From the NCBI GenBank assembly GCA_044892525.1, contig CM097886.1, forward strand, positions 79,918,001 through 79,982,000: 64,000 bases of DNA. The letters run 5' to 3'. Of the stretch, positions 7,398-53,299 are shown piece by piece. The translations under genes and the position numbers were made by a program. The notes under the pieces are model-generated. The model saw only the letters and a list, made by a program, of their open reading frames with translations, was not told the DNA's origin and did not search any database. Source of the DNA: Schmidtea polychroa. Taxonomy: Eukaryota. Every line of letters begins with the position of its first letter. Position 1 is the first letter of the stretch.

Positions 7398-10300
7398 TGT
7401 TGGGCTGAGTCGAAAACGTAATTGGCCAAAAATAGAAAAATAAGAAAATAGGACACTAAACATAAAAAATAAATAAACAAAATTAAGAATAAAATAGAAT
7501 AGGATATAAGAAAAATAATAATTAGGAGATAAGAATGAAAACAACAAATAAAAATAGGAAAAATTAAAATAAAACAATAAATTGACGAATAAATGATGTA
7601 AAATTTAATAAATAATAAGGAAATTAAGGAAATAAATAGAAAATATATTAAAAATAAGGAAAATAAGGAAAAATAACCAAAAAACGGGAAAAAATAAATT
7701 AAAGTAAATTAGCGGTACTCAATTTTGATTGGTCCGCATAAATAAAAAATTGGTATATAAACCGACGCCAAAATCATAAAAATCAGTGTTAATCCAAAAA
7801 CTTACTAGGTACCCGACGATAGCAGATTCGTAATCAATTCAAATTCAAGAGACGACTAACAGTAGGAAACTTTATTCAAAGAATTACAGGATTCTAAATC
7901 AGCAAGCCGATTTTAAAAGGACGATTCCTATTTTCGATTCAGCCTAATTTGATAATTCGATAGTAAGGAGATTTTATATTTTTACTTTGTTATCTTACGA
8001 GTCATTAGTATTCATGAATATATGATTTAAATTTTTAAGTTAACCTAATCTCCTTTCATTTGGTCCGTAATAATGATTTTTTAATCTAAATGTCTAAAAG
8101 TATTTTATTCGTAATAAATGATTTATGACAGAGTTTTATGATGAATATTTTTTATTATTGTTTTCATGGTTTTAACATTTATGAGTAACGTGGTGTTGAG
8201 ATACTCCATGTCATGGTGTGAGGTGCCTTTGGGAGCTCAGCCGGTGGACATGGAGTTTTCCAATCACGCAGCTAGATTGGGCCGTAATGTGAAGGCTTCT
8301 TCACGGGTCCCATCGCTGAAGGACTTAAAATTCAATCGAGACAGATTCGAGGAAAAATGAAAATATGAGCTTCACAATGACTGAGCGAGTCTAAAATCTT
8401 CACCTCTACAACAACTTCATAACTTTCGTATCTGAACGATCTAGTAACATCATCGACAATAGATTCAGGTCTTCTAAATGCCGCTATTAAAGCATTTCCT
8501 CGTTTCACAATTTGGCATTCACCTTCGGTTTAACAACGAATTCGGTTTTAGCGTATTTCTTTTAATAGTAGAATCACCATAAATTAGAATGCAACATTAT
8601 CATAAAATCCAACTAAGAACAAACGATATATTTAAGAAATTTCATGTAAAAGTAAAACTAATTTTGAACCATCTGCATACAAACCAGAATAAGAAGATTT
8701 CGTCGTTTACCTTTCGAACCGAGCATCATCGACCAGCTAAGTGTAGTAGAGATATCCAGCAGACTTTAATAAAATCCAACAATAGCGATGAGATGTTTTC
8801 AATTTTCCACGGTTAGATAGACATTCGCACAGCATAACGAAATCCAACTCAAAAATTCCAAATCAAATTTTCATGAGATAGGTACATGTACCGATATGCA
8901 AATACGTGATAATAGTTCCAGTGGAAAAATGCATATGTGGATACACAACAGCGATAGCACCGAGATTAGGAAACGTAATTAGGTGAGAATTTTCAGGTGT
9001 CTCATCCATTAGATTAATTCGCTATGATACAACGTGGTAGCGGTTGAATCAGTAACGTACAATCTCCATGAGAAATTCCACCCGGCGAGTAGTGGTTAGT
9101 TGCCACCATGTAGATAACAATCATCGGATTAACGCTAGTCATAGATAACCGTTGGCGGGTGGTTACATATGCAGATTCAGAGATTTTTTCGAACTTGCAA
9201 ATTTTATACTTGTAATTGATAATTAATTCTATAGATTAAGTTTTTCGTATTAAATAATTTTCTTTTCATAGAATGATCATAGGAAATAATTTTTGTGGTT
9301 CATTAAACGTGATCTAACATTTTTAAGAAAACTTTATTATAACTAATTACACTTAAACATTGAATTTCTTTTCCAACACTAATGTATTACTTTCGGTAGG
9401 TAAAGGTATATCTTGCCGATTGATTTTCTTGTGAATAATTAATTCAGATAGTATAAATATTTGTTCATCTTGTTACTCAATTTAGTTTCTTTTTCGGTAA
9501 TGAGATCTGGTACAACTAATAACCATTGGTGTCGAAATAATGATTTAACGAATTTAGTTCATCTCATTTAGTCCTGCCTTTCCTTTATAGACATCCTAGA
9601 TGATCCCAAATACAAGATCAATACTCAAACCCTGCTTTTCCTGCTCCGATAAGAACGTAGTAATCAGTGATCTTCAAGCTCAGGTAGGGCGCTATAAGAA
9701 AAAGATAGACGAATTAGAAGGGACATGGTTTAGTCCCACCCATATGAAAGAGATTCAGAAAAAACTCTATCGTAGTGAGCATTGTCAGGACGCTCTAATC
9801 TCCGAGAGCCGATCCCAAAGGAGTCTGATCAAGGAACAGTCTGAAGCCCTGCATAAGATGTACCTGCAGGCAGCAACCACCAGAAAGAATGTTAACATCC
9901 CCATTCGGGAAGCCGATGAACTATTTCCGGCACATCATGATACCTCTGTCGAATCGCCGTCATCTTCCAAAAAAGCTTGTCGATAATGTGTCGAAACTCA
10001 ACTTTCGGCGAAACAACCAGATGTCGCCTTCGTCGGAATCAGTCAGACTCCACCCGCAACCACTTCTATGCGCGCAGCACCCCCGAATAATCTATCAGTC
10101 TCGAAACCGAAACGTAAGCAATTATCTCGAGCCGAACGCAAAAAGAGGCAAAAGGAACGAGCGACCGCGAAGCAGCCTGAACGAATAGCTCCTACAACTA
10201 AAGTCACCGATCTACCTGTCATAGTCGATTTAACGACCGGAACCCCAGGGCGAATAATTTCGGCCGCTGGAGTGGCGTGGGAGGAGAATGCCTCTGAATT

Positions 10301-11002
10301 CTTCGACCTGGAAGAACTGTTAGCTGCAACATAGTGGGAAAAATAATGACTCCCCCATGGAATGACCTCATTCTCCAGAGAAACACGAACGAACTATTCG
10401 CGTTTTCTGTTTTGTGTATCTTTCGTATTTTCGTAACTCTGTTGTATAATTCCTCGAATCACCTTGTATATTAGTGTTGGAAACAAAACATTTTTGTATT
10501 AATATAATTTTAACCTTTTTCTCAGTATAATGAGTTCAGTGTGAGATTATAATTAGTATTAACTGTTGTCGGGATGTGAAAAGCATTAGTCAGTTTGCGA
10601 TCCAAACGAATGGCATTACGAAGGGGTGAGGAAATGAATAGACATAAGACCTTCTATCGGCCATCAGGGATGGGAAGTCGAGGCCTCAGTAAGAAGTAGT
10701 CCTAAGGCAGGGGCTCACCTGCTTACTGGTGTCTCGCCGGCATAGCACAGTTCCAACGTGAGGAGATTCACGGGTGCTATGTTGGAGTATAGGTTATGTG
10801 CGGGTTCTGCTCAGGGTTGACAAAATTAATGGCGGGTCAAGTAGGAATGACATTCATCCCCTAGGTTAACAGTAAAACTAAGGATGGTCAACTGAGTAGT
10901 GCCCCAACATTAGTTATCTAATAGTTTGTTCTAAGATATGTTTTTAATTCAGCAAAAAGTCCATCGTATTTAACACCTACTGTAATAACACAGTAATCAA
11001 CA
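7398..11002 (+). mobile_element. Probable solo LTR (3.6 kb) of a giant gypsy family related to the element at 45885+
   Basis: Termini TGTTG...CAACA with TAG(T) on both flanks. It shares with the 45885-51470 LTR the start TGTTGGGCT plus an A-rich tract, an internal ORF with EGTWFSP, the motif CCTTCTATCGG and a covarying hairpin. No PBS or internal genes follow. Confidence 0.65.
9600..10334 (+). pseudogene. LTR-encoded coiled-coil ORF (244 codons) with one in-frame TAA at 9984-9986
   Basis: ORFs 9600-9986 and 10068-10334 are in the same frame and the interval is open after a single TAA. Motifs ELEGTWFSPTHMK and KPKRKQLSR match ORF 50610-51068. Confidence 0.7.
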
Positions 11003-11317
11003 TAGTAGAAGTTTTAAGCTTGAATTTTTTGTAAAAGCATAATATGCTACTCTAATTTTATTTTTAATTTTAAATTTTTGGGGCCCCGCTTTAGCCCGAT
11101 CAGCCCCCTATATCCGCTACTGAGTGCAAAAGTAATTGCAAAAATGAAATTACATGTAGAATATGAGGAGTTTTTGTATTAAAATAATGGTATGAAGTTG
11201 TGCATGTTTGATTGTATGTTGATATTCTTGCTTATACATTAATTATTATTTTTAGAAACTCAAACAAATTAACGTTATAATTTGTTTTAATAATATTTGT
11301 ATTTTAAGATAATAAAA

Positions 11318-11630
11318 ATGGATTCGATTAAGACCCATAGCTCTCTGGCTAATATGTCGACCACGAATGGAAATTGTATCAAGCCACCAGAAACATATGA
11401 CATGGATTCAGATATGGAAGATTTCATATTAGAAACGGAACGATTTTTCATCAAAGCTTTTCTATCAATCAATGCAACGAAGAAATATCAATTTTTATTT
11501 TTTGAGTTGACAAATGGAACATTATAAAGAATGAGAAAAGCTTTTGCTAAGAACAGAAGTTTTATCAATGATCTCAACGAAGCGGTTACTTATCGTCAAG
11601 TAAATGAGGCAAATATAATTGAAAAATAAT
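11318..11630 (+). pseudogene. Possible retrotransposon gag N-terminal remnant
   Basis: KPPETYDMDSDMEDFILETERFF resembles the start of a gypsy capsid; broken by frameshift and stop. Confidence 0.35.
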
Positions 11631-12309
11631 TATACTTTCACTATCAATTTTTATTTTTTTACAATGGTTATCCATCACATTCCGAGCAGTATGTATAAAC
11701 TCTTATAGCATGATTCCTTTTTCAGTACCTTTTTCATACTTCATTTTACCTCAAACAAAAAAAATTCTTGGCCTCCTGGAAAGTTTTCTTAAAACATGTT
11801 AACCACAAATATTGTTTATGCATTTATTATATTCAGTATTTCAGTTTTGTCGAATATAATTTTTGTTTATTTAGAAAACTATAATGTCTTTTTTTAATTT
11901 CATTTTCTCCTCACACTGAAAATGTTCAGTAAATAATCTTAAAATTTCGTAAGAAAGCAAGATAAATATATCAGTGTTAAAAATGAAAGCTTTAATTTCA
12001 CTGCCATGTTGTTTGTGAATTTAGCTTAATGTTGTGTTTACACGTTTCAATATCTTTTCCCACTCGGTTTATCTAGATCATAATATTATATAATAAAAGA
12101 TGTAATATTGAAATGATTTGTTTATGAATATCTTATAGAATAAGGTTTAACGAATTTGCAGGAAACGTAACCCATCAAAACACGAGTCACCAAGGATGAA
12201 TAAATAACTAGACGACCTACCTAAGACGGAAATATGAATATATTCATAAAATATAACCAAAAATCTTCTAATACGACATGGTAATATATTTTGATTTAAT
12301 TAAATTTCA

Positions 12310-12437
12310 CTAATGTGAAAATGGCACATAAGAGGTTTCAGAAGTGAATTTTCTCACTATCCCTTGCTGTGTAGCTGTAGCTATTAAGTCTCCACTCTCC
12401 GTCGATATATATGAAATATTGAGAGTTAGTGCTTCAT
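12310..12437 (-). CDS. ACOT8: ACOT8-like exon 6 (last)
   Basis: Acceptor TTATTTAG; NEALTLNISYISTESGDLIATATQQGIVRKFTSETSYVPFSH-stop. Confidence 0.85.
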
Positions 12438-37200: not shown

Positions 37201-39489
37201 GGTGTTACACATAGCACTCAGATTGTACTCGATCTGGCTGCGCCTTATCTAAATAACGGTAGAACTGTTGTTACTGATAATTTCTACACGTCTAGGTCGT
37301 TAGCTAATGCATTGATAACACAGCAAACTCATCTTCTGAGAACTCTTAGGAAAAACCGAATTGGTAATCCTACTGAAGTCACTAATTCTAAACTCCGAAA
37401 GCATGAAGTTATAGGTCGAGAGAATTCAGGCATTGTAGTAGCTAAATAGAGGGACAAGCGAGAAGTTCTTATGTTGAGCACAAAGCACGACCTAACAGAA
37501 GTTCGAACTGATCAAAACAAATCGCAATAATGAAGATATCATAAAACTTCAAATGATAATTGATTATAATTTTGCCAAATCAGGTATCGATTTATCTGAC
37601 CAGATGGCTAGCTATTTTACGCCTTTACGCAGAACTATTCGCTGGTATCATAAGATAGCATTTGAGTACCTTCTGAGTACAGCCGTTGTAAACGCTCTTA
37701 TTTTATACAAAATAAGTAAACCAAATATAAAAATAGCTGAATTCAGAATTTCTATTTGTGAATCCCTTTGTGAAACATCAATTTCGTCAGTATCCGTTGT
37801 AGTACAACGTCCTCCAGCTAGACGGCATTTAATACAAACGTATACCGCCAGAAACAACCGAAATAGAATTATACGTAAAAGGTGTGTTGAATGCTACAAA
37901 CAATTGCAACAGCAGAAAGGACGAGAAGAAGCAACAAAAAAACCAAAAGAGTAACAACTTTTTGCAGTGGATGTGAGGATAATCCGCCATTATGTACAAA
38001 TTGCTTTAATAAATTACATTAATTTTTATTTTATATTATATTTTATTATATTTCATATTTTCTTTTGTTTTGTTAATTTTTATAATACAAATTAATGAAT
38101 TTTTATGTTTGAAATAAAATTTTTATGATTGTAATCTTTTCGTTTTTCTCCATTTTGTTCCAGCTATACTTCTAAATGTAGATGTAAACCATAACAAAAA
38201 AACCTTAATTTACTTTTATCAAGGTGCCACTGTATATAAATAAACAGTTTAAGCCCACTGACACAAGAAAAACTTGATTATTCAGTAGTATTATGTATGT
38301 ACCGCCGGCGCTACACGTGGAATATGTATAAAAATGTACTGTGTACTGCGGGCGGGGCATATGGCAGTCAACGTGTTAAGCTGATGAATTATCGTGAACA
38401 CGTGTAAAATTATGTTAATTGTGTTTAGGTGTGCTTGTAGATGATTGAGTGTTTAGAGGATTTTGTTGAACCCAGCAGAGTCACCTTTAAAAATGTTTCG
38501 GACAACTGGGGTGATTTTATGTGAAGTATTCCGAGTTTCAACGAAAGAAAAACTTCACGGTATGCTTGTCTACTTTTCATTATCGAAACGAAAATATCCT
38601 AAATTTAGTACAAGAAAGCAGTTATCGCGCATATACACCAGCCGCCCATTAGAAAATAGCACCAGTGTTTCGATCCCTCGAAATGAGTTTCCACGCAGCT
38701 GGGCGATAAGTTATCGCGAATTTATTGATTTTTAAGTGCAAAAAGTGCAATTTGTACAATAAAACTATCATTATTGATTTAAGAGTGCAGAAATTGTGCA
38801 AAAATCATTATTAAGTTTATAAAATGTTATGAAATTATTGTATGCTTAAATAATGAAAATTTACTTAAGACTCCTGCAAAGATTGTGAAAATTAGCATTA
38901 ATCAAACAAATTTCACAATTGAAAATTCATTTTTATAAAATGGAGAATTTTCTATTAAATTAAATTTTAGGAATTTACCTTGAAGGAGTTTTTAAAATTT
39001 CTTCAAAATCCAATAATTGTTTGATATTTGATTTAGGCACAAATTTAGGAGTAAATTTTAAATGTTTGGATTTTTCAGGAGCTTTGAATGACATCGAAAT
39101 ATTTGAGATACTCACATCGTTTTGCTTGACGGACAGGAGTAATTTTCTAAAGTTTTTGCTTTCAACTTTATCTAATACTTCATAATTGAGGGAACTATTA
39201 GGAACACCTTAACTTGTTTGTAAGTAAATATTTTCATCATTATGTTTTACCTTTTCTCAGATAATACACATGTATATTGTGAAGAAAGAAATTTTCAGGA
39301 ACTATATTATATCCCACAGAAATTCCTTGACCCACAACTAAACCCCCAAACAACTGTTTCTTATTAAAGCTACCAGCAACCAGGCCTCTAAAATTTAATG
39401 TATATTTTTAATTATTAAAATAAAACCAACTGGTAAACTGTATTGCTCAGCATTTTTAATTTAAATATAGATTCGATAATGTTTTTCAT
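12310..39489 (-). CDS. ACOT8: Acyl-CoA thioesterase 8 / TesB-like (double HotDog), 6 exons, 300 aa: complement(join(12310..12437,26249..26449,30235..30383,38979..39207,39251..39387,39431..39489))
   Basis: Spliced by hand with GT-AG sites and consistent phases; 903 nt = 300 aa + stop. Motifs LFGGLVVGQG, LHNIHVYYLRKG, AFLSDY, SSLDHNIWFH and GDLIATATQQGIVR match ACOT8 LFGGQIVGQA, VHSLHCYFVRAG, AYISDY, VSLDHSMWFH and GVLAVTCAQEGVIR. Confidence 0.9.
12862..14198. mobile_element. Non-autonomous TIR DNA element, superfamily unresolved
   Basis: TIRs GAGGCCGTCCATTAAAGTACGTCA versus rc GAGGCTGCCCATAAAGTACGTCA; TAT on both flanks (3-bp TSD candidate). Confidence 0.7.
13247..13830 (-). mobile_element. 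Possible solo LTR nested in the TIR element
   Basis: Abrupt composition change to a purine-rich minus strand; AATAAA near the 3' end; ends in TACA; the 5' TG is not clean. Confidence 0.35.
14452..16375 (-). mobile_element. Tc1/mariner DD39D (plant-mariner-type) transposon, degenerate
   Basis: 30-bp imperfect TIRs CTCCCTCTGTCCCATAATACT..., TA left flank and CA right flank. N-terminus RKLIYEDLLSEIDNGILKRGAY..VSIQTV. Catalytic QDNATPH...NSPDMNILDLGYF with 39 residues between D2 and D3 (one is a stop). Confidence 0.9.
16990..17686. repeat. 21-bp minisatellite (TTGAATAATAAATTTATAACC) with ~258-bp higher-order block; resumes briefly after the Polinton (~25754-25797)
   Basis: Read directly; a variant unit recurs at 17231 and 17489. 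Confidence 0.95.
18527..18598 (-). ncRNA. TIR copy of tRNA-like Pol III unit 3
   Basis: Reverse complement of 24839-24910. Confidence 0.55.
18576..18845 (-). CDS. 89-aa coiled-coil ORF in the TIR (copy 1), unknown function
   Basis: ATG-initiated and identical to 24592-24861. Confidence 0.65.
   Translation of the reverse strand: MDELKERMRNELNEVKHKRMKRREEEPLEYIKELMVDNEKYRHFYMKAVDVADIRLKKMKQLQERVKELESIIYSLKNDKNPILDSAVG
18961..20809 (+). pseudogene. Protein-primed family B DNA polymerase (pPolB), 5'-truncated at the TIR boundary
   Basis: LKFIDSLNF, GIYPYDY, NIRGGVS, YIDATALYS, KILNNSVFGKT, MDTDS, KGI motifs. The N-terminal region is absent; the frame begins inside TIR sequence. Confidence 0.92.
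20800..21317 (+). pseudogene. Polinton packaging ATPase (FtsK/A32-like), lacking Walker A
   Basis: Walker B LVIFDD and RGRHNNCNVIYISQ present; no GxxGxGK(S/T). It abuts the end of pPolB, suggesting a deletion junction. Confidence 0.85.
21329..22727 (-). pseudogene. ZnF + parvovirus-type PLA2 + RVE integrase fusion; frameshift at ~21800
   Basis: CETC..H..KKH; HNYTRPGT..DQAALKHDIAY; WSADL, VIDLYTRFA, CDKGTEF, (frameshift) VERLNRTLK; C-terminal KFKIGDRVRI..FYNNELQK. Confidence 0.9.
22757..24049 (-). CDS. Polinton/adintovirus major capsid protein (double jelly-roll), intact 430 aa
   Basis: Size, context and motifs NNFFPNLFS..L.LG..IE...PG, LFGFLQNY, RPRYILIGF are typical of Maverick capsids. 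Confidence 0.8.
   Translation of the reverse strand: MNNINLKIQEKNKLNLDYNKEFTHEIKKNDVLKISPTSGSIANLNRMGDIVFQSLQTSNPIDICNAKLYYKIELEIEANKDITLENNFFPNLFSNMRLKLGSSEIETVLHPGVYSTMLNFILTGCDYKNEYGELTGWIPDVNKGDLDKDGLDVNHGYHKRAELYKSKKFEGYFELKHLFGFLQNYNRILHNVFIEFICNRVEGDKRLFYGAVDTKAKLKLSTLELHIPEWTLNPHSEIKLLERLNSNKSINVNYLNRICSEFSMTEGSTYSIKVANLAYRPRYILIGFKEVDSSFQKNNNLFIQKIGVDNLKTIQIQLNSSYYPINRMEFNIENNENIFPYLNYIETCYDFKVEPQLSLKDFKNLYSIFCINVSDQDDRLAINNVDVTLHVTKDSNFKAKVYTLILEEKKIEMKLYGGKISIIENFRGDS
24106..24178 (+). ncRNA. tRNA-like Pol III unit 1
   Basis: A box TAGCGGAGTGG at +8 (24113); GGTTCAATT with T at +54 (24159); T7 terminator 24181-24187; cloverleaf stems poor. Confidence 0.5.
24349..24421 (+). ncRNA. 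tRNA-like Pol III unit 2
   Basis: A box TAGCTTAGTGG at +8 (24356); perfect T-arm ATGGG-TTCAAAT-CCCAT with T at +54; T8 terminator from 24422; anticodon and acceptor stems do not pair well. Confidence 0.65.
24592..24861 (+). CDS. 89-aa coiled-coil ORF in the TIR (copy 2), unknown function
   Basis: Identical to 18576-18845. Confidence 0.65.
   Translation: MDELKERMRNELNEVKHKRMKRREEEPLEYIKELMVDNEKYRHFYMKAVDVADIRLKKMKQLQERVKELESIIYSLKNDKNPILDSAVG
24839..24910 (+). ncRNA. tRNA-like Pol III unit 3 (in TIR, overlapping the end of the 89-aa ORF)
   Basis: A box TAGCGCAGTGG (24846); B box GGTTCAAATCC (24889) plus a second GGTTCAAAT (24873); T9 terminator from 24913. Confidence 0.55.
26249..26449 (-). 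CDS. ACOT8: ACOT8-like exon 5
   Basis: AG/GT sites, phase 1/1; LIAFLSDY..SSLDHNIWFH. Confidence 0.88.
26652..26862. mobile_element. hAT-Charlie-type MITE (211 bp)
   Basis: Imperfect TIR CAGGCCTATACAAC / rc CAGACCTGCACAAC; flanks ATTTAGAT and GTCTAGAT (6/8 match, NTCTAGAN-like). Confidence 0.7.
27073..27198. repeat. Foldback inverted repeat (126 bp)
   Basis: Perfect 17-bp outer (AAGAGGAATTCCATTTT) and 15-bp inner (TTGTACATTCATTTA) complementary arms. Confidence 0.85.
28260..28800 (-). pseudogene. Merlin (ISXO2/IS1595-like) transposase remnant
   Basis: Decayed frames MQQRGILHNPRMC, a G.G.QVEI(N)E.LF-like block and SMIDSYTPEFMWKR (cf. YL.EFMWRR). Confidence 0.55.
29300..29800 (-). pseudogene. 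pogo/Tigger transposase remnant (CENP-B HTH)
   Basis: EMEKVLLLWIDDQTSHNVPISQSLIQSKSLTLF. Confidence 0.7.
30235..30383 (-). CDS. ACOT8: ACOT8-like exon 4
   Basis: AG/GT sites, phase 2/1; FPFMLTPVDP..MSYWFTLKPDI. Confidence 0.85.
30672..30831. mobile_element. 160-bp MITE with 26-bp perfect TIR
   Basis: TATAAGGTTTGAAAAATTCGAAGGTT and its reverse complement. Confidence 0.75.
31024..31147. repeat. Foldback element, 49-bp imperfect arms
   Basis: AAGCTTAAAGATTATG...TTTTTGATATTCA paired with TGAATATCAAAAAC...CTTCAAGCTT. Confidence 0.8.
31149..31212. repeat. (TA)n(TG)n microsatellite
   Basis: Read directly. Confidence 0.95.
31534..31820. repeat. Tandem duplication, ~148-bp period, 2 copies
   Basis: AATCGATG..GTGATATGAAAAG..CACCGAGAAAGAG at 31534 and 31682. 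Confidence 0.85.
32169..35591 (+). mobile_element. hAT (Tip100/ZMYM1-like) full-length transposon
   Basis: Perfect 8-bp TSD CCTATGTG (32161-32168, 35592-35599); imperfect 13-bp TIR CAG.C.CG.ATTA; subterminal CGTAGGCCCTAGGCAC repeats. Confidence 0.95.
32810..35378 (+). pseudogene. hAT transposase with one stop (34016-34018) and one frameshift (A-run ~34723-34730)
   Basis: WLIYS..CYIC, LPFRG, DSTPD, SYDNA, CAAHSLNL, ETRW, ERSFSKLKRIK, RLSALTLLSIE. Confidence 0.92.
35975..38375 (+). mobile_element. piggyBac transposon, full length (2401 bp)
   Basis: TTAA TSD both sides (35971-35974, 38376-38379); 14-bp perfect TIR CACGTTGACTGCCA. Confidence 0.97.
36307..38022 (+). pseudogene. piggyBac (PGBD4-like) transposase, disrupted
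   Basis: VDESM, TDNFYT and GIDLSDQ catalytic motifs; Cys-rich tail (CVEC..CSGC..LC..CF..LH); TAG at 37447-37449 and frameshifts. Confidence 0.92.
38979..39207 (-). CDS. ACOT8: ACOT8-like exon 3
   Basis: AG/GT sites, phase 1/2; LNYEV..NFRKLLLSVKQND..SFKAPE. Confidence 0.88.
39251..39387 (-). CDS. ACOT8: ACOT8-like exon 2
   Basis: 43-bp introns on both sides; QLFGGLVVGQG..HNIHVYYLRK. Confidence 0.9.
39431..39489 (-). CDS. ACOT8: ACOT8-like exon 1
   Basis: ATG at 39489; MKNIIESIFKLKMLSNTVYQ resembles the TesB/ACOT8 start; phase-2 donor. Confidence 0.8.
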
Positions 39490-42449
39490 AATAATGATTT
39501 ACCTTGAATGAAAAGTTTAATATTATTACTAAGTATTCTGAATGTATTGTAAACAATTTTACTGAATTTTAATATTATAAATAATAAATTTAGATTTTTA
39601 ATTTGTATTTCAAAAATTATATATATTGAAACAAATCTTGAAACAAAACTGCATATAAATAATTACTGTTTATTATATATAATGTTTATATATACTGTTT
39701 ATTATTTATTATAAATTATATTATATATTAGAAACATCTCTATTACATAAAAGTATTAAAATAATTTTTAAATGGCAAAGTAATTGATGTAATCACTCGA
39801 CTTTATGGGTGGTCTTTTGCTGTAATCGTGCAAAGACTTCCGTTATATTTGAAAGAGATAGCAAATGCAAGTAAATTATAGAACAGTTGAAAAACAATTG
39901 ATTAAATTAAAAAATGACAATGGAAATCTAACTGATAAGCCCAGAAATTCGAAGAATGACGCAAAAACATTGTTAAGGAAAGAAGAAGCAAAATGAATAT
40001 ATTATTAATTTCAAGTATAGCTTGATTGTATTGGCAATAAAGGTATTCGTAATAAACTTAGTTGATGATATCGATAGCTCCTAATTAATGACCAAGAGTT
40101 TTAAAAATTTTAACTATAATGTTCTGATAGAATTGTCTCAGTATAAAAAATAAATTTGTTTATTTTATTAATAAATGTTGAATGAAAAAAACAAAAGTTA
40201 TATTTGATGATTTTAATCAGTTCATTTTAAAAGAATATAATATCAAAACATTCAATGTGAATTTAGTTCAACAGGATCTTTTAAAAGTTTGTCATAGAAA
40301 ATGCAATTCATTTGAATTTACTGATTTGAAATAATAATTTGTTACTAATCAATATAATCTCTTCGTAAATTTGCAAACTCCCTATTTAAATGCAATGTAC
40401 CCATTAAAGTGTCCTATATAAAGATGTTACGTATAAAATTTCGAATATTTTATATTGTATTGTGAATTTTAGGGATCAAGTTTTTTTAAATACAATTCAA
40501 ATTAAATTTTTCTGAGAAGTTCTTACAGAAAAGTGGTGCTTAGGTCATATCTTAATATCGATGCCCTTGGATGTGTATATTTCCGTCCTGGATTTGGCCG
40601 TTGAATAGTTTTCACATTGGTTAGAGAAAGGATCAACTATCCCTCCTATGGAAACAGCCTTTTCTAAATATCCCAATCATAAAGTGAGGTCAGTCACAAA
40701 AGAGGCAAATAAGTGGATTAAAAACACGTGATTTTGAATTGTTTACTTTATTTAAAAATGAAAAAATTAAATATAATTTAAATATAACCAAAAACGAGCA
40801 AATCTCTCTGTGATATATGTGATGAAAGATTCAATTGAAAATATCATGATCCACAAGTTGTTTAAAGATAGAAACTAGACCTTAATGTTTTACTGATCAT
40901 TCTTTGTTCCTCACCTATCGAAACCGAAACAAATTTATTAATTGATGTTTAACTTTTCTTTTGGTTAGAAATTTTATAATTGCAGCACAAATATCGTGTT
41001 TTGTAAAAGGTTTAATTTTTTTTGTTATTATTGAGGTCTCACTATTTTTAGATTCCTAACAATACTGGTTCTTATGTAAATTAATTTGGACGATGTCTTG
41101 ATATAAATATTTTATTAAATATTCAAAATTACCGATTAAAATTCTAGTTGTACAAGATTTATCTTCGAACTATTCGCTTTGATAATAACCTACAAAAATT
41201 CTTGCTACTTATGTTTTGTTAAATGTTATGTAGTGCGTGCTGTGTAAAAATTACTGCAATTGAAAGGTTTGTGAAACGTTTTTGTCTCTATCTGGTTTTA
41301 GTTATTTCGCAGGATTTACCTTTGAAAAAGTTCTTCAACGCTGATTTTTAGGCAACAAACTGAATTTTTGCTTGGTTTTTATATTAAGATTTTTTAATAT
41401 AAAATTTAATAATTTTATTTTTGGTCTTTTAAAATATATTTTATTGCGTGCTGTATTAAAATGATTGCAATAATAATTCTATTTCTTGTTATAATATTTC
41501 TACTAATTAATCAATTTATTCGTAATGTTTTATTTACTTAGTACTGTTTTGTTAAAATATTAAATATATAAAAATATAATTATACAATAAAATTATACAA
41601 GAAATTACTATATAAAATATATCCCAAAACCATTTATTAAAGAAAAAAGCTACTCATTAAAAAAAATCGTCATTTGTCAGTTAAATATATACAAGGTTCT
41701 GTAAAAAATTGTACACAAAGCGAAAATAATCAGAATAAGCTATACACCATTAATTAAGATTAACACAAGGAATAGTCAATTGTCGATTAATTATATACAA
41801 GATTGATAGCTTGATGACTTTTTGACTGCTTAATTTGGTTCTTTGATCTTTGATTTAGTTCTTCATTGTCTCACCTCAGCAAATACATTTGCCCTGTAGC
41901 TTCTAGGCACTGTCCTATAATACTTATTTAAAACTAACGTGGTAATGGGCCTACCCTCATCATTCAACATCATTGAACAACTTATACTTTGTTAACTTAA
42001 TTCAGAAAGTGGCATTCAACCAGAGTTGAATGATTTGCAACAAAATGAAAATGTTAAAGTAAACTTTATGAAGTAGAAAAGGAAGAGAGGCAGTTGAAAA
42101 AGATTTAGCAAAATGACAACATCCAATCAGATGTTGCTATGGAAAAACACATAGAAGCTGACTATATCTCCGAGTCAATCCTATACATTGATGATGCACA
42201 TGAGATTAAAATATGATTGATGAAGTCGCATAATGTATTATAGACACAGATAATGATGCTGAAAGTTTCTCAAACCAATTCATCTGTAATTATTTTTCAC
42301 GATGTTGAACTAAAAATTTGATAAAGTGTCAAGGTTATCAATAATATCATAGCAGATGTGCACAAAGATGATAACTCATGTACCACACATATTTCAGAAC
42401 AAAGACATCAAGACTTTCATTAACCCATCAATGGTGTAAGCGTCAATCT

Positions 42450-43060
42450 GCTTCCTGGAATGTGATTAATCGGCCATGGTTATTTTATTCACTACATCAA
42501 TAATACATCAATTCATTTACTGCTTGAGTGTCGACTTTTGCTGCCTTCTATTCACGAATCATTTACAACACGGAAAGGGCAGAATGAAGGATATTTCGTG
42601 GAAAAGGTATTGATGCTAGAGTACAGGTTCAAATACAATCTGAAAAACAAAGATAGAAAGATGTTTTGAAACTAGTACCTACTTGAATTGAGTTCTTAGT
42701 ATCTCAAAATTTGGCGCTGCGTGGTCACTGTTATAATCTAAAAGATAATTACAAATTAAATATTGTGAACTGTCTCTCTTCTCGATCCTATTTTGTTAAA
42801 CCCCGTACAACATGTCAAATTCAAAATCAGTTTTATATATTTCTTTCTTCTACATTCAGTAAAAAAAATTTTTTTGCCGGGAATGTTTCTTAGGCTATAC
42901 TTTTAATATATCAATGAAATTGTAATAGCTTTATAATTATATTATGACTGATAATGATTATGTTTCGCTTGCAAACAGATTATGTAATTGCACGACGGTG
43001 CCGCCGTTGACGCAAATTTGAATATTTTGCCCTGAGCACCAAATATCTTCGCTACGCTTT
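42450..43060 (+). mobile_element. Degenerate hAT remnant
   Basis: FLVSQNLALRGH (cf. FLA.QNLAFRGH); end motif CGCTACGCTTTTG resembles a CAGTGGCGTAGC-type TIR. Confidence 0.5.
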
Positions 43061-43426
43061 TGGTTATAAGGGTAGATCAAGAAATATATTTTCGTGATTT
43101 TAGTTAATATGATTGGTTAACCAATCCTAAAAGCAATGAAGATGCAAATAAACTAAAAATATTTTTTCAGTGAAACAATAATAATAGTAATAAGCAAAGA
43201 ATTTTAATTCAACAAATTAAAATTATTTTTCTGAAAAAGTTGTTAGAAGTTGATAAATAGTTGATAAATACCCATAGTTCAATTAAACAACTGTAATGTA
43301 ATTGAATTCGATATTATGCTGAATCAAATTAGAATTAATAAATATTGTTTATTATTTGCAGTTTTTCATAGACGTCAGGGGATATTAGTTCACAAATATA
43401 AATACTGGCTTAATTTAATGAAACCC

Positions 43427-43501
<75 letters not shown>
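43427..43501. repeat. (AAT)25 microsatellite
   Basis: Read directly. Confidence 0.98.
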
Positions 43502-44427
43502 CATATAAATACTAACTAATTTATTCTATCTAATCAACCACTTTAAATTTTTTTGCAAAAGAAAAGCTTGAAATTAGTAACCTAGGTTTAGTAAGCTAAA
43601 TTTTAAACATGATTGAGCTCAGGAAACTGCAAGTCTTTTGACGTAAAGAATACATAACATAAAAATTATACGAAATATTTATATAAATTTTGGCAACGGT
43701 AGATATTTATTTCTGTGCAAAGCTTAGTTAATAAATATATTTTTATTTATTTATTTATTTATGAGAATTCGCTAAGCTCAACAAATCTGATGTATTTAAT
43801 TATATGTCTTTCGTGTACTAATTATTTATAAATCTAACCAGTAGTATAATTGTATCTTTTAATTATTTTTTTTAAATAACAGACTTCTCAAAAAAAACTG
43901 AGTACCCCTAGCTATGTGGATACTTGCAAATCCTACTTACTTACTGTTGCATAATATGTTTTCATTATGTGTGTGTATATATCCTCACAATGTTATGTTT
44001 CTTTTAGTTAATGCGTTATTGTTGATTTTTTTTCAATGTATTTAAACAAATTGAGAAGCTCTGAGTTTTGCCATCACGACATTGTCGCCGAAGCCGATAT
44101 AAAAAATGTTATGTCAAACTGTGAATAAATTAATCATAAACACACTGAACTAGATAAAACAGAAAACTGAATAGTAAAACTATTTTTAAAATAAAAATTG
44201 TAACAACCATAGTTTAAACTTGGCTGGATTTCATTCAGTTAAATATGAAATTAGTAACTTAATTAAAATTGAATTTATATGGTTTAATTTATTTTTGTTT
44301 AACTGAATCATTAACGAATACTTGTTTGAAGAAAAAATAAGTTTGTAGTTATTAACTACTTATTAGCTAATCTTTTTTAAATCTTCAACTATTGATATTT
44401 TCCTTTATTAATAGTTTATATGATAAA

Positions 44428-45216
44428 ATGCAGCTTCAGAATCATATTTATGGAGATATACCATTTATAAAATTCGAATTTATATTCGAAATGAGAGGAG
44501 AATTAGCGAAATTTTTTATCAATAATTCTATGATTAAATCTATAGAAAATAAATCCAATTGCAAAATAAATTTAACTAAAAGAATACTGAATCGTCAAAT
44601 AGAAAATTTCCCATGGACTAAATATCATATTTTGGAAATTATATCGAATAATGAGAGAAATATCAAAATCTGCAATCATTTACTGGAGCGAGCAATTCCT
44701 CTATATAAGAAAAGAAAACTTTATAAAAAGCGTAGCAATGTCAGCATTTTTACCAATGAATTTCATCCTGATAATACCGATCTCTATTATCCAACTCAAA
44801 GAACTGGTGTACTTTCTGGACAATATTGCGAGTTAGAGTTGAATAATATTTTATCATGCGAAAATAGATCCAGCGAATGTTGGGATTTTCCGTGGAAGTC
44901 TACAAATTCAGAACAAAGTGGCTGTTATATACCTCAGCATTATGATAATTTTGATTCCATTCGTGCTGTTTATCCTGATTTGATCAATTTTGAAGATCAT
45001 TTTAATCCCGAGATCGAAAATAGTGCCTGTCCGAAGCAATCTTACTGTGAAGTGAAAACTCACTGCCTTTGTGATATTGACCCTTTAACGGGGCTTCAAC
45101 ACAACAATAAAACGAAACGCATGAAAGTTAAATATAAACCAATTAAATCCAGACGCGGTGAAACTGATCAAAAAAATGATTTGATAAAAAATATTATTAA
45201 ACATCTTATTAAATAA
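44428..45216 (+). CDS. Intronless 262-aa ORF with a degenerate KH-like domain and Cys-rich C-terminal half
   Basis: Long open frame in AT-rich DNA; AATAAA overlaps the stop. FEFIFEMRGELAKFFI..IKSIENKSNCKINL..LEIISNNERNIKIC fits type-I KH periodicity, but the GxxG loop is absent. Confidence 0.6.
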   Translation: MQLQNHIYGDIPFIKFEFIFEMRGELAKFFINNSMIKSIENKSNCKINLTKRILNRQIENFPWTKYHILEIISNNERNIKICNHLLERAIPLYKKRKLYKKRSNVSIFTNEFHPDNTDLYYPTQRTGVLSGQYCELELNNILSCENRSSECWDFPWKSTNSEQSGCYIPQHYDNFDSIRAVYPDLINFEDHFNPEIENSACPKQSYCEVKTHCLCDIDPLTGLQHNNKTKRMKVKYKPIKSRRGETDQKNDLIKNIIKHLIK

Positions 45217-48149
45217 AGTGTTTTTTTTAAATAATAAATATTACATTGAAACCGTGTTGAAAATTTTCTTCGTTCAAGTTACAATTAATTTTGGGGTTTG
45301 GATTTTATTTTAAATAATTAATAATTTTTATTAATTTTTATGTAATACAATATTATTGGTTAACACTAGATTTACGGACTGAGCCAATTTGACTAATTTA
45401 AAATTCTTTTGCTACATATATATAATACTGATTTACTATATTTTGAATGCATATGTTGGATTTTGGATACCTCATGAAATATAGGTCAATATTAATTACT
45501 CTCCTCTATCGACTCCCTCATTTTTTTTATATCGAATTAGGTATACCTATTTTTACGGCTATTTTTACCTGTAAACCTAGTGTTAAGAAGTCAAATTATT
45601 TATGCAAATATATCGCGTTGCATGTGATAAAAACTTTATTGAGGTGTAATGCCAAGAAAATATACAAAGAAAAATGAGAAATCATTCCATATAAATTATT
45701 GTCAGATTTTATAAGAATTAATGGATATTTCACATTTTAAATAACCCTAATTTCTCGCGTATAACCTGCACCTAATAAATTTCAATAATTTCCATAAAAG
45801 GTAAAATTTTTCACTTATAAACCACACTTAGGTACTTCCGTGTTATCTTACCCCCAAAAATTAAATTATAAAATACAATTAAAATGTTGGGCTAGAACTG
45901 ATTTCTAGACCCAAAATACTAATTGTGACTGAAACGCGTAGGTACACAGCAAGTAAAAAAGCACCAAGTATAGTTAAATATTAAAACCTACACCAAATAA
46001 ACAATATTAACTAAAGGAGAAAGCAACAAAAACATAAACAAAGAAATTAAACAAAATTATACAAAAGCAAGAAGTGATGCAAAAATCTAACTCAAAAATA
46101 ACCAAATAAACACAGAGTTACAAAAAACAGACTCGAATAACTTAAAAGACGATAAAAACAGTAAAACATTCCAGAAAAACCCAGAACATTCTATAAAAAT
46201 GGCGATGACCATCACAAAAGTTATCTAGAACAACAAAAGTTAAGGAAAATAAATAAATTAGTATTAAAAATAAAAAATCTCAAAAAGAATTCATAAAAAC
46301 ATCAGTTAAAATAAAAATTAAATTAAAAGTAAAATAGAATGTTCTGGAACCGTTCCAAATCCATCATGGACGTAAAATTAATGAAAAATAATTAAAAAAT
46401 AAAAATATAAAAATAAAAACAAAAATTATTGCACAAAAATTGCCATTAAAAATAGCAAAATCGTAAAATAGAAAATTCTGGAATAAATAGAATTCGAGTT
46501 TGTTTTAATGCATCAATACATACACGTGTACAAAATAGGTATATATACTGACGCGTTTCAGTCAGAATTAACCATTATTTTATGCCAAAATTTTTGTGTC
46601 AACAAAATATCAACAGTGAGTACGATTGATTCATTTTATCTATTATTATTTTATTTTATTATTATGTATTGTTGTCTCAACTATGTTAAGCTATTAAAAT
46701 GTTTTATATTTTGAATTTGTTTAATTAAAGTTTTTTTTTGATGTACGAATGTTCAACGGCGTACCGGTATTCCTGCGTCGTTGTTCAGTCCTGCATTTAA
46801 TTTTTGAATTCGATTTCACATGCACACATACATTATTTATATTATACTAATCACTTATTATATGGCTCTTTTTGTGTTCGGGTCCTTCGGAGGTCGAACT
46901 ACTTCATGGTCCTGCCATGGAGTTAGGTCGAGGAAAACCTCCGCCTGACTCTTTGTATTTATGTAAGGTCGACCGTAAATGGTTGACTCAACACATAACA
47001 CTAAGGTTTGTGGAAGTGGTCACAGTGGGGCCATGGAAGCAATATTCTTCCCGACTCATTACGTAATATACAATTAAACTCAACACTTAAAATTCTGAAC
47101 AAATAACTCCACACTAAGGTCTTAATCTGAGTAGAACTCATACTTAAATTAACACAATTATACAAATCACAGCAATGTAGATGGTTGATCAGTTATGCTT
47201 AGACATATGCCGAATTGGGTTTTCGTAACAGTCGTTTATAGTAATCAGAGTAATGGAAAGGTTAAAGATATTCGGCATACGTGTAAGTATAACATAATCT
47301 GGTTAAGTCTTCGAATCAATATAACTGTAAATATTCCGGACCCCAAAAATTAAGTTGCGAAATCCCATCTTAACATACTTATAAGTACTCGGTTGTAATA
47401 ATCTTTTATGTTGATTATAAAACTACAGGTGATAAATGACTATGTCGTTGTAGGTACGAATTATAGCCAGAGAATATAAATTAGGAATTCAGAAATTGAG
47501 GTATAAATCGGGAATGGTAATGACCAATCTCCTAATGTAAAAAGTCAATCAACTTGAAACTAGTTATACATAGATATACTGCAACTCTGAAGTGATAAAA
47601 CGATACCCAGAAATCGGTAAGACAATGTTGATAATAGAAAGGGAAGTTAGAAAGAAGTATACCAAGCTGACCAAAAATTAGAACTCAAAAATATGAAATT
47701 ATAAATTAGGAATACCGAATTACAAATTGTAAATCATAAAACCTAAAATTTTAAATCAGAAAATATAAAATCATAAATGGTAGAATATCGGATTATAACT
47801 TATAAGATATAACATTATAATTTACGAAATATAAATGGATAAATTATAAAATATGAAATTTTTAATTGTAAACGATAAAATTATAAATTATAAAATATCA
47901 ATTCCTAAATTACAAAATATAAAAATTATGAATTGCAAAATAAAAATTTATAAACTATAAAACTTAAATTTGCAAGTTATAAAATATAAATTTATAAATT
48001 ATAATTACCTATAAACTATAACCACCTATATATTACTTAACAAAATGGTATAAATATAGAGTATGAAAAAACTAGAATTAATACTTAACTTAGAAATTTC
48101 GAAATATATATAGTTACAATAAGCTTGCCTCTAAGTACAAAAATCCCTT

Positions 48150-48850
48150 TAAGATTATAAAATAACTGTAAAATTATTGTAATTCTTAATATCATCACTA
48201 GGATTTCTATTAATATTACTAATATTATTAGTATTACCATTATCACTAGTATCATTATTATCCCTATTCGTATCATTATTATTACTATTATTGCTATCAT
48301 TATTATTAATATGATCACTATTATTATTATTATTATTACTATTATTACTATTATTATTGTTATTATTGTTAATATTATCACTANNNNNNNNNNNNNNNNN
48401 NNNNNNNNNNNNNNNNNNNNNNNNNNNNNNNNNNNNNNNNNNNNNNNNNNNNNNNNNNNNNNNNNNNNNNNNNNNNNNNNNNNNNNNNNNNNNNNNNNNN
48501 NNNNNNNNNNNNNNNNNNNNNNNNNNNNNNNNNNNNNNNNNNNNNTTATGATTATTACTATTATTAGTATTATCATTATTATTATTATTATTACTACTAT
48601 CATTATTAATATTATCATTATGATTATTATTACTTTTATTATTATTATTATGATTGATATTATTATTATTATTAACCTCGTTATCATTACTACCCTCATT
48701 ACGACCATTATTATTACCATTATCCTTATTATTATTATCGTTACCATGGTTATTATTGTTATCCCGGTTGTTGCTATTAGTACTATTAACGATAAGTTAT
48801 ATACGACTTGACTAGTATTATTACTAATACTGCCCTTAATATATATAATT
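48150..48850. repeat. (ATT/ATC/ACT)n low-complexity tract with an assembly gap (~48383-48545)
   Basis: Read directly. Confidence 0.9.
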
Positions 48851-49952
48851 TAATTGTAGATAGACATATATATATATATATATATATATATACTTAGTCA
48901 TGGTGGAATATATTAGTAAATGCATAAATATTATACTGATTATATATTATCATTATTACTACTTATAAAAATCAATATCCCAATCTGATATTGATTTTAG
49001 GATTTCCCCAATAAATTAAATATAGAAACAACCCTTTGAGCCAATCAGAGGGATCAGAATTCGGAAAAACTATTTTTAGCAACACCCCCCCCCCCCTCTG
49101 GGAGAATGTTACCATTATTCAAGCCACCTAGGGATGTGAATAAGGGGGTAGGATCAGCTATGCAAGTTAACACTGAATATATAATCAAACTTAAGTTTTA
49201 TCAAATCAACCTAAACGAGAAATTTTATTCATCAAATTGCCTTGAATAATAAAGTACTGTACACCCGGGTTATAGATGCCAAGCACCATGATTTTCACCT
49301 AAGAACGAGAAGCCGAACTCCAGGAGCTGAATCTCTAACTCTCCAGCTGAAAAACGATCGCCAAATTGTCCCTAAATTAAACACATACGATGAAAGAATA
49401 AATTACCCCAAATGCATAGACGATGATTTTACCACTTATAACGAATACAACCAGGGGAAGAGTAAGTGGGCAAGAGACTGAGCTCGTCACTAGTACCCTT
49501 CGCCTGACGTAATCGCATTTAGTGGAAATATTCACATCTACAGAAAATTACCTAAAATTTCCAAAATTTTAACTTATAAAATTCAAATTACCAACTAGTG
49601 GTAAATAAATGACGAATGATTAAATCAATAATTTAAAACAAAACCATTTTTTTTTGAGATTTTCGGATCGGGTATGGATTTTCTGATGTTAACACTTAAC
49701 TCTAATGAATTTTTATTTAATTAAAAAGTATATCAATAGATTAAATAAAATTTGGTCATGTGAGGAGGATTTATATTAATTATAATAAATTTAGTAGTAT
49801 AATAAATTTAGTAGTATAATAAATTTAGTAGTATAATAAATTTAGTAGTTAAGTACTATTGATTTTGAACAAGAACTTTCTGTATGTTTGTTATGACATC
49901 TATTTATAAGCCACGTTGGCTACGAGCGGGCCTTAATATTCATATTATAGAC

Positions 49953-50318
49953 ATGTCGCAATCGAGCTCTAGCAGTGACGAGGGTACTGACCATCAGACG
50001 ATCACCCGTCTCCGGACCCGGTACATCTGGCACCATATACATCGGTGGGGTCAGGGAAGGGACCTGGACTGCGCAAATAGAGTGATCCGGACGGGCCCCG
50101 AAGTAGATGCCCCGGCATGGGTGAAGGTGGAGCCGGGGAATAACCGGTAACAGGAGGCCCGAGATCAAGCAGCCTGGGAGGTGGAAGCCGCTCAGATGCG
50201 ACTCAAGAAGATCGAGATGCAAATCAAGGCGGAAAAGGAGGGAGTGCCTCTGGAAGAATTGGAAGAGGTCGAGGCACACCCGAGAAAGAGGGGGAGGCCC
50301 CGCAAGCACCCCGCGTAA
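49953..50318 (+). pseudogene. LTR-encoded ORF A (121 codons, one in-frame TAA at 50148-50150) ending in an AT-hook
   Basis: The frame stays open past the TAA: QEARDQAAWEVEAAQMRLKKIEMQIK..PRKRGRPRKHPA. Followed by AATAAA at 50441. Confidence 0.65.
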
Positions 50319-50609
50319 TTGTGGGAGGACAATTTGCTCGACATTGACAATTTGTTTTTATATGAACTAATTATTAGGAATCTGCTGTGTTTATTTTATC
50401 TTTTAATTTTGTATTAATAGACGTCGGGTGTTTATTCTCGAATAAAGTATTCTTAGGTGTTTTGTAAATCATTTGATAGATGGGGGGGGGTATAAGGATG
50501 CCCTAGTAGGAAATGTTAAGATTAATTCATTGATTTTAATACTTATTGTCCTAACTTTATTGTTGGGTGTAATGGGAACTAATGAATTTCCTCTTTAGTG
50601 TACAAGTTA

Positions 50610-51068
50610 ATGGAAAATCTCCGGAAGGATCGGGAGCAGGCCCAACACCAAGTCGACGAATTTCGGATCCGGGTGGACAAGTTGAAGGGAAAATGTCGAG
50701 ATTTCGAAGGGACCTGGTTTAGTCCCGAAGCAATGAAAAAGAAAACCGCCCAGATCCTCCAGCTGCAAACGCAGGCCGCCCAAGACCAAATGGAAATCCG
50801 CGCCCTGAAGCTACAGGTGCGGGCGCTCGAAACTGAGAAAAACGAGCAGTTGGTACAAGGGGCTATAGCCAGACAAATACGGCCACTGGCTGTGGACCTC
50901 GCAACTATATATCCCCCAGCCGCTGAAAATAAGCCCAAAAGGAAACGGCTTGGCCGAAATATTCGGGAAAAATTGAAGAAAGCTAGGCTGGCCGAATACG
51001 AGCGGCAAGCAAATTCGTCACCAGCAGCCACGACGGAATTGGCCAGTCCTACCAATAAGCCTGTTTGA
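50610..51068 (+). CDS. LTR-encoded ORF B (152 aa), coiled coil + basic motif
   Basis: FEGTWFSPEAMK and KPKRKRLGR shared with the 9600-10334 ORF. Confidence 0.75.
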   Translation: MENLRKDREQAQHQVDEFRIRVDKLKGKCRDFEGTWFSPEAMKKKTAQILQLQTQAAQDQMEIRALKLQVRALETEKNEQLVQGAIARQIRPLAVDLATIYPPAAENKPKRKRLGRNIREKLKKARLAEYERQANSSPAATTELASPTNKPV

Positions 51069-51474
51069 ACTTATATTCGGTTTTAGGTGTTTTGTAGTAT
51101 ATTTATGTATTGTTGTAGTCTTCAAATAATATGTTCCTTGTTAAAATAATGCACATTTTGTAGTGATAAAATAATGACTAGTATAGTTTATGATTGCCTG
51201 GAAAATGGGAGTTTGTGCATAAGGTTGGGAAAACAATTTTGATAAAGGGACCTGAGAAATCGGACACACACCTTCTATCGGTAGTCCGTGAACCCATGGA
51301 GTACTCGACAATTATAGTGCTTTGATGCGCTCACTTTTTGCGAGTACTCAACCCCTTGGTACAGTACCAACGTTGATTACTCAACGGGTACCAAGCGGAA
51401 ACCAACGTTGTATTTTGGGTTACGCTGGTAACAGCACTCAATCATTCAACCACCAGTAACCCACCATACAAATT

Positions 51475-51492
51475 TGGGGGCTCAGCCGGGAT
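51475..51492 (+). promoter_or_regulatory. Primer-binding site complementary to the tRNA-Pro 3' end
   Basis: TGGGGGCTCAGCCGGGAT(TTG); 16/18 identical to the canonical TGGGGGCTCGTCCGGGAT. Confidence 0.9.
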
Positions 51493-52672: not shown

Positions 52673-53299
52673 GGAGATGTTGTCAAATAAATTTCTTGTG
52701 AATGAATATGGGATGATAAAATTTTTAAATTATATTAAAAAATCCATTATAGCAACCGAAAGGTATAAAACATACGATGAACATAGACATATAAAGGACA
52801 CAGAATACGTTAAATAAATAGACAAGCAACACAGCAATTAGAACTAAAATCAAAATTGAATGCAGGACTGATCATAGTCGTATGAATGAGCTGATCGATA
52901 AGATCAGTACGATTTTTACTTCCAATTTTCTTTTCTTCCTGTTTTATTATTTTGGCATAGAGTGATACGACAATGAGGGGATGACAAGTGAATCGTCCTT
53001 ACGACACTTGCCCGGATGGGGAAATCCTGATCACCCTGACGAGAGAATGTAGTAGGATCCATCGCAAATGTTGGGGAGTTTCTGTCGAGTGACTGATCAC
53101 CACTTGTGGGAAATGAACGAACGCGATTATTATATTTGTTTTGTCTGGGAGACTGGGGTTGACTAAAAGGGTGAATAAAAATAGAAAAATAGAAATAAAA
53201 ATTGAAAAACGCGCGCTAAATGTTAAAAATTTAATCCGAGAGCAGCTGCGGATTTGAAGAAACCGTTTTTGGACTTCAAATCAGATGAGAAATAATGAT

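Follow-up and report, generated by a model that had tools for sequence, protein, structure and literature searches.

A selected protein family encoded inside the long terminal repeats of giant Gypsy-type elements of Schmidtea polychroa, and its possible role in the control of element RNA

The sag gene of mouse mammary tumour virus (MMTV), the nef gene of human immunodeficiency virus (HIV) and the foamy virus gene bel2 lie in the U3 part of the long terminal repeat (LTR) and need an upstream promoter. The retroviral proteins Rev, Rex and Rec work with RNA response elements. Among Gypsy elements, the nematode element Cer1 encodes CERV, described in PMC10309623 as a novel nuclear protein with a coiled coil and a basic nuclear localization signal; it is translated from a spliced mRNA, and export of the unspliced genomic RNA depends on it. 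Cer1 has in turn been reported, in PMC13524379, as sister to a flatworm env-bearing element, and the layout of the giant Gypsy-like Burro/GYPSM1 elements of planarians has been described in PMC6431247. Here we analyse 64,000 nucleotides of Schmidtea polychroa DNA (assembly GCA_044892525.1, contig CM097886.1, positions 79,918,001 to 79,982,000; hereafter the window, whose positions are counted from its first letter; the LTRs with their parts and the element behind LTR-B lie on its + strand), in which two LTRs of giant elements, LTR-A and LTR-B, each hold a gene for a member of one protein family that is marked by a WFSP and a KPKRK motif.

One protein family in divergent LTRs

LTR-A (7398 to 10909) belongs to family A and runs from TGTTGGG to CCCAACA (TG...CA). 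Since the 4-bp target-site duplication (TSD) TTAG flanks both ends, it is a solo LTR, as an earlier sequence-only reading of this DNA had stated, although at 3,512 bp it is slightly shorter than the proposed 3.6 kb; the same LTR flanks a gag-env-pol element elsewhere. LTR-B (45885 to 51466) is the 5' LTR of a Burro-type element of family B, and its proposed size of 5.6 kb agrees with the 5,582 bp found; a primer-binding site (PBS) lies behind it and its 3' partner is 99.6 to 99.9% identical. As had been noted, the two LTRs have little DNA in common, with short patches of likeness only, the best being 44 nt across the WFSP codons. All four of the expected protein motifs were located, at 9708-9746 and 10104-10130 in LTR-A and at 50700-50738 and 50931-50957 in LTR-B. 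The supposition that each pair sits in a single open reading frame (ORF) has to be corrected for LTR-A, where the frame of the window copy (ORF at 9600 to 10334, about 250 amino acids (aa) in open copies) is interrupted between the two motifs by a TAA at 9984-9986; sister copies of family A mostly have frames near 250 aa. The family-B member of the protein family, ORF-b, occupies 50597 to 51068 if its acceptor AG is counted in. LTR-B holds a second selected gene that had escaped the earlier reading, namely ORF-a (49953 to 50318, 121 aa), with the AT-hook-type sequence PRKRGRPRK at its C-terminus (50280-50306) and, in the window copy, a stop at 50148-50150.

That the two LTRs encode the same protein family, and do not match by chance, is borne out by blastp (22% identity, E 8e-8), by an alignment score of 87 against a maximum of 73 in shuffles (0 of 3,000 as high) and by profile-profile comparison with hhalign (probability 94.9%, E 4.8e-8). 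The two families are indeed divergent in their LTRs, but not in their reverse transcriptase (RT) cores, which are 90.4% identical. For the core of the LTR protein versus RT, identity is 51% versus 98% between families A and C, and 24% versus 90% between A and B; the LTR protein diverges alongside the LTR and far faster than RT. The proteins of families A and C have an additional CxxC motif and an acidic tail, whereas family B is without both and has ORF-a instead.

Outside this genome, a single homologue was found among 1.84 billion representatives, an unnamed metagenome protein of 157 aa that is 47% identical to ORF-b across 102 aa. No homologue with E<=0.001 was found for the A, B or ORF-a proteins among proteins of near length, a scan of metagenome contigs gave 205 pattern matches of which none was confirmed as a homologue, and the best Atlas score, 0.83, is a lead at most. 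The LTR proteins likewise found nothing at E<=0.001 in Pfam, among PDB sequences or, by Foldseek with a low-confidence model, among PDB or viral structures, and neither Pfam nor the homologue searches revealed a host-like domain. The model in question, of the family-A protein, has helices only (pLDDT 61, pTM 0.24), of which the first (residues 15-98) is long and has a kink at WFSP, while a basic one (177-195) follows after a disordered linker; confidence is low overall. Fold searches with it and with the ORF-a model (pLDDT 68, pTM 0.31) came back empty, and the Pfam AT_hook score of ORF-a stays below the cut-off (E 0.17).

The motif match is not confined to the two copies of the window. Each protein search of the genome (781 Mb, four of its contigs being very large) yielded at least 150 matches with a score, out of some 6,000 candidates at first look; these figures are lower bounds and not copy numbers. 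The gene occurs in many copies and in three pol-bearing families. The ratio of nonsynonymous to synonymous substitution rates (dN/dS) was 0.08 pooled for the family-A ORF, with a median of 0.12 over 591 pairs (65 distinct sequences among 78 copies, after 2 of 80 loci had been dropped; synonymous sites near saturation), 0.10-0.12 for ORF-b (0.12 pooled; 61 distinct of 88), 0.20-0.24 for ORF-a (0.24 pooled; 52 distinct of 81, with 7 of 88 rows dropped) and 0.06-0.09 for the family-C gene in three of six pairs, the others being saturated; part of the copy sets was chosen by protein similarity, which biases these values downwards. The WFSP/KPKRK genes, at 0.06-0.12, are thus far from the value near 1 that a meaningless frame would give, and out-of-register frames do give 0.99-2.5. 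The in-register antisense frame is also low (0.19-0.36). Stops common to at least five copies occur in 16, 5 and 5 columns of the antisense frames and in none of the sense frames, and third codon positions vary 2-5 times more than second ones.

Variants present in at least three copies have nonsynonymous-to-synonymous (N/S) ratios of 0.55, 0.44 and 0.48 for the family-A ORF, ORF-b and ORF-a, whereas those of private variants are 3.4, 2.1 and 3.2. It follows that selection acts during element replication and not on inserted copies, which decay neutrally. When family-A copies were picked by their non-coding DNA, 27 of 28 had no PBS behind them, so most must be solo or truncated, and 12 (by a lenient test) or 14 (by a stricter one) of the 28 were broken. 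The expectation that every solo LTR would spread the factor therefore needs to be narrowed, as solo LTRs carry the cassette but their copies decay, that of the window being defective by its stop, a degenerate splice donor and the lack of an AATAAA after the ORF.

Within the proteins, the helical core and the basic helix are the most constrained parts. The basic helix is the most constrained of all, its shared variants having an N/S of 2/27 in family B and 10/46 in family A, while the linkers are near neutral at about 1:1 or more. The Fisher tests used treat variants as independent. In the acidic, LxxLL-like tail of family A, 19 of 39 columns are invariant among shared variants, and RKRGRPRK of ORF-a is invariant in all six aligned sequences. 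The protein family is real, selected and without a named relative, and in this last respect the earlier reader's failure to recognise it was well founded.

Position in the LTR, predicted splicing and RNA structures

In each of families A, B and C, a TATA block is conserved 0.4-0.7 kb into the LTR with a splice donor behind it, and both lie 1.8-4 kb upstream of the ORFs; no comparable TATA block was found between ORF and LTR end in these three families. As the ORFs are downstream of a conserved TATA and donor, they likely lie in R or U5 and not in U3, the start site being a predicted one. The predicted promoter and leader of LTR-A (7728 to 7810) comprise a CCAAT box (ATTGG at 7728), TATATAA at 7754 and a donor at 7809 that is degenerate in the window copy. 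The block is present in 11 of 14 family-A stretches, and AG/GT stands at TATA+53 to +59 in 10 of these 11. The 25-nt leader of families A and C recurs about 50 nt further on (around 7785-7860 in the window), and this repeat tracks each subfamily's own leader. In LTR-B, a promoter and a coding leader exon are predicted at 46523 to 46621, with CACGTG, TATATATA at 46540, an ATG at 46582 and the donor GTGAGT at 46616, and these are kept in sister LTRs.

Each LTR ORF begins directly after a pyrimidine tract and an AG. In family A (tract and acceptor at 9575 to 9590), AG and ATG are 5-10 nt apart in 59 of 62 distinct copies, a variable distance that fits a non-coding leader, and a poly(A)-type hexamer follows the stop codon in 10 of 13 copies. 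In 14 of 17 family-B LTRs, among which the exon has four lengths, the leader ATG and the donor are separated by a distance of 1 mod 3 (several leaders are near-identical; the truncated copy L187 was excluded), and this phase matches the acceptors of both ORF-a and ORF-b. None of the 63 copies lacks the ORF-b acceptor AG (50597-50598). Between this AG and the Met, the Y/F-K-L codons vary mostly synonymously, and the Met itself is replaced in 13 of the 63, so an upstream coding exon would be needed for ORF-b. For ORF-a, the acceptor AG stands 2 nt before the ATG in 38 of 40 copies. Because the cis donors are conserved, spliced-leader trans-splicing is unnecessary as an explanation, though it may still occur.

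ORF-a and ORF-b are each covered in part by contigs from three runs whose nature as RNA is a guess, and two of these contigs cross the ORF-b acceptor unspliced; there was no GT-AG joint among those listed for the stretch compared, which did not extend to the leader. A loose contig end at 50594 was rejected as a splice, as it is a genomic subfamily variant, and a copy (L157) joined near the acceptor was rejected as an intron loss, as it is an imprecise deletion.

The LTRs also contain conserved RNA structures. A twin hairpin in the predicted intron of LTR-A (8183 to 8321) shows compensatory change in 12 of 48 pairs, with 97% of cells paired, and a structured RNA near the LTR-A 3' end (10641 to 10787) does so in 8 of 44. 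Each was matched by 0 of 500 shuffles and both exceed slid controls as well, although related sequences can exceed such shuffles. The twin hairpin is restricted to families A and D; its loop (8231-8248) resembles the PBS at about 14 of 18 bases by eye, which may be chance or a tRNA-interacting site. The 3' structure is common to all five families sampled (A, B, C, D and E), with weak profile matches in B and E. Its version in LTR-B (51271 to 51395; E 0.002) is 90-95% conserved among B copies. The alignment also brought out conservation at 46872 to 47055, within the intron predicted for LTR-B, where the sequence is hairpin-like by eye. Rfam gave nothing near threshold for either LTR. Between 47696 and 48850, LTR-B contains tandem copies of a 22-nt unit as well as a long microsatellite of the (TTA)n type; the 3-nt array recurs in 7 of 7 sister LTRs checked.

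Carrier elements and surroundings

The PBS (51475 to 51492), which we take to be tRNA-Pro-like, has 1,063 exact matches in the genome and its reversed control none. Among the first 30 of these matches, the gene was found within the last 1.5 kb of the LTR in 19, namely two of family A, 11 of family B and six of the seven of family C, which is a third pol-bearing family (RT in 3 of 3 copies followed). The gene was undetected in the remaining surveyed LTRs, eight of which belong to family D (1.6-kb LTR) and two to family E (5-kb LTR). In two copies each of families D and E, the internal regions measure about 11-12 kb and the LTR ends are 99.9-100% identical; tblastn found gag but no RT or env there, and the LTR gene nowhere inside. 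In family D, about 9 kb lie between the PBS and the gag ORF that follows it, and both the twin hairpin and the 3' structure are kept. Family E is a pol-less derivative of family B whose LTR lacks ORF-a and ORF-b and which keeps the RING ORF, a long Gag ORF and the weak 3' match. Both families thus appear to be recently mobile dependants. That the gene accompanies pol and env and is dropped by mobile pol-less dependants is the pattern expected of a trans-acting product.

The element behind LTR-B begins within the window (52190 to 64000) with a RING ORF, a Gag with CCHC knuckles, MATH, a fusion glycoprotein and a protease, and continues past it with RT, RNase H, integrase, ankyrin, a TRAF finger and BIR-RING (all by Pfam). 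Its 3' LTR, 37 kb downstream and with the TSD AAAA, is split by a nested 5.9-kb insertion beyond the window, namely a Gypsy element of ordinary type in which gag and pol ORFs are present; family-B pairs without such an insertion are 30-31 kb apart. With more than 30 kb, multi-kb LTRs, an env-like glycoprotein between Gag and the protease-RT-RNase H-integrase block, and MATH, ankyrin and BIR, we assign element B to the Burro-type giant Gypsy elements, an already known kind, by size and domain layout. A family-A element elsewhere has env, RT and a TRAF/MATH ORF between LTRs 26 kb apart, with no BIR seen. Most internal accessory ORFs of both elements (that at 52190 being among those considered) start 0-3 nt after an AG, which suggests that one leader may serve many accessory genes, though their phases do not all suit the family-B leader. 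In the leader between PBS and gag, a 132-bp unit is repeated 3.4 times with 98% likeness (54074-54522).

Elsewhere in the window, a Polinton-like element (17687-25753) has perfect inverted repeats of 1.3 kb, ORFs for DNA polymerase B, an A32-like ATPase and double-jelly-roll capsid proteins, and a 21-nt tandem array at its left end. Two broken transposase genes stand side by side (32696-35378 and 36274-37954), with DUF4371 and DDE_Tnp_1_7 domains, presumably hAT-like and piggyBac-like, respectively. The last coding exon of a Rab-type GTPase lies at 1277-1780, and a 281-aa open frame with no Pfam match at 44371-45216, just upstream of LTR-B.

Possible functions and comparison with known systems

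Since these elements combine a strong early donor, many acceptors and a poly(A) signal in the 5' LTR, the question arises how an unspliced RNA of 30 kb could nevertheless be made and exported. The answer that we tentatively favour is that the LTR gene product is a trans-acting nuclear regulator of its own element's RNA, a switch like Rev or CERV; a nuclear or regulatory role as such, which had already been proposed, is plausible. The promoter would fire about 0.4-0.7 kb into the LTR, a leader of 25-45 nt would be spliced to the acceptors ahead of each small ORF, and this short spliced transcript of the LTR would serve for early production of the LTR protein. In the window, the leader would correspond to 46570-46615 in LTR-B, with 49951 or 50599 as the joined position, and to about 7785-7808 in LTR-A, with 9591. 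The long kinked helix of the protein would oligomerise and its basic helix would bind an LTR hairpin, and the bound protein would let the 30-kb RNA pass the donor, the acceptors and the poly(A) signal inside the 5' LTR, or exit the nucleus, such that full-length unspliced RNA would be favoured as with Rev or the CERV of Cer1. Housing the gene in the LTR would keep regulator and target linked while LTRs diverge or swap.

The sense-frame selection in three families, the constrained basic helix, the splice anatomy, the pol-linked distribution of the gene, with hairpins retained in the pol-less families that lack it, and the co-divergence with the LTR make such an RNA switch a possibility to be taken seriously. 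Several observations weigh against it. A pattern scan of 25 proteins found no conserved leucine-rich nuclear export signal, as it is absent in 10 of 12 family-A proteins and at scattered positions elsewhere. By sequence, the twin hairpin finds no counterpart in family B or family C, both of which bear the protein, and the retention of hairpins in pol-less derivatives would be just as compatible with signals for packaging or priming. Neither Pfam nor PDB showed homology to Rev, Rex or CERV, the CERV sequence not having been in a direct comparison, and the basic helix may merely be a nuclear or nucleolar import signal. The phase rule of the family-B leader has its limits too, as of the 14 phase-1 leaders 12 are open and two contain a stop, common within a subfamily, and as the rule fails in three of 17 LTRs (two in phase 2 with stops, one without an ATG). 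Lastly, the acidic hydrophobic tail of families A and C and the AT-hook partner in family B suit a DNA-level activator better.

Such an activator, or anti-silencer, would bind its own LTR, in family B together with ORF-a, and raise transcription or shield the element from PIWI-guided silencing; foamy virus Tas, Tat and the plant VANC proteins would be its analogues. We consider it somewhat unlikely. The conserved LxxLL-like tail in A and the similar one in C, the invariant RKRGRPRK of ORF-a, the co-divergence of protein and LTR and the loss of the gene from pol-less derivatives all agree with it, but family B and the metagenome homologue have no acidic tail, neither models nor fold searches point to a known DNA-binding fold, and the AT_hook match of ORF-a is below the Pfam cut-off. 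A rise of Burro RNA upon loss of SMEDWI-2, reported in PMC8532177, would also be in line with control at this level. One could further imagine a host-directed or particle-associated accessory protein that came to lie in the LTR since these LTRs grow by taking in sequence. Most internal accessory ORFs likewise start just after an AG, several accessory proteins of the elements are coiled coils and other small genes encode TRAF or BIR-RING proteins, loss in pol-less derivatives would suit any product supplied in trans, and the BIR-RING gene of Burro1 has been reported, second-hand in PMC13465017, to protect stem cells. This explanation would, however, leave unexplained why the gene is in the LTR in all three autonomous families, why a K/R-rich helix is its most constrained part and why no host-like domain was found in the searches, and we regard it as unlikely. 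Finally, the open frames and motifs could be by-products of GC-richer DNA, of an antisense gene or of RNA structure, with no protein made, a view with which the low dN/dS of the in-register antisense frame would agree. It is nonetheless extremely improbable and largely refuted by the shared stops in antisense but not in sense frames, the variable third positions, the N/S of 0.44-0.55 of shared variants and the persistence of the motifs beyond the range in which the DNA can be aligned.

Returning to the RNA switch, one could speculate that the transcribed LTR is a self-contained module of promoter, leader exon and switch, in which a new Rev-like or antitermination-type protein recognises the hairpin of its own family, and that derivatives without pol have retained the hairpins so as to make use of the protein in trans. 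In this complete form we hold the proposal to be doubtful; if it were true, regulator and target would travel together and thousands of solo LTRs would be potential expression cassettes. More generally, the gene is a candidate for how a heavily spliced retroelement of 30 kb controls its full-length RNA, in elements for which abundance, activity and a benefit to planarian stem cells have been reported. With the gene downstream of the LTR promoter, solo LTRs may express a nuclear protein and not be inert scars, and solving the function of this protein would extend the known retroelement regulators by a new type, beyond vertebrate retroviruses and the nematode Cer1.

Compared with what has been described, element B resembles Burro/GYPSM1 (PMC6431247) in its length of more than 30 kb, its CCHC Gag and MATH, the placement of env between gag and pol, and its RT-RNase H-integrase, ankyrin and BIR ORF, but that description names no LTR ORF, leader splicing or hairpins. 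Searches of the literature on Burro and on LTR ORFs yielded no description of these LTR genes, although an earlier annotation in the primary Burro papers is possible; the accessible portions of PMC8532177, PMC13465017 and PMC11410931 do not mention them, and a word search of the part of PMC13524379 at hand returned neither Burro nor LTR ORFs.

By analogy, the LTR protein would be a regulator of the complex-retrovirus type, and by the tests run it falls outside the Rev and CERV families. CERV, according to PMC10309623, has 517 aa, is encoded internally with exons shared with Gag, and has a Cys loop, a ring-forming domain and a candidate export signal, whereas the LTR protein has 150-250 aa, lies in the LTR and shows neither an export signal nor homology. 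Rev, as outlined in the same paper, parallels what is predicted for the LTR protein in its fully spliced mRNA, its basic helix, its oligomerising helices and a structured RNA present only in unspliced transcripts. The LTR protein differs from Rev, Rex and Rec in that it has no sequence or fold match to them, no conserved export signal and a gene inside the LTR. With MMTV sag, HIV nef and foamy bel2, the genes described here share a coding sequence that lies inside the LTR and is duplicated at both ends of the element. The parallel that had been drawn with these genes nevertheless breaks down in one respect, as the planarian-type ORFs are located downstream of the TATA and donor block and not upstream of the predicted promoter, and because they follow the predicted LTR promoter, a solo LTR would hold the whole cassette.

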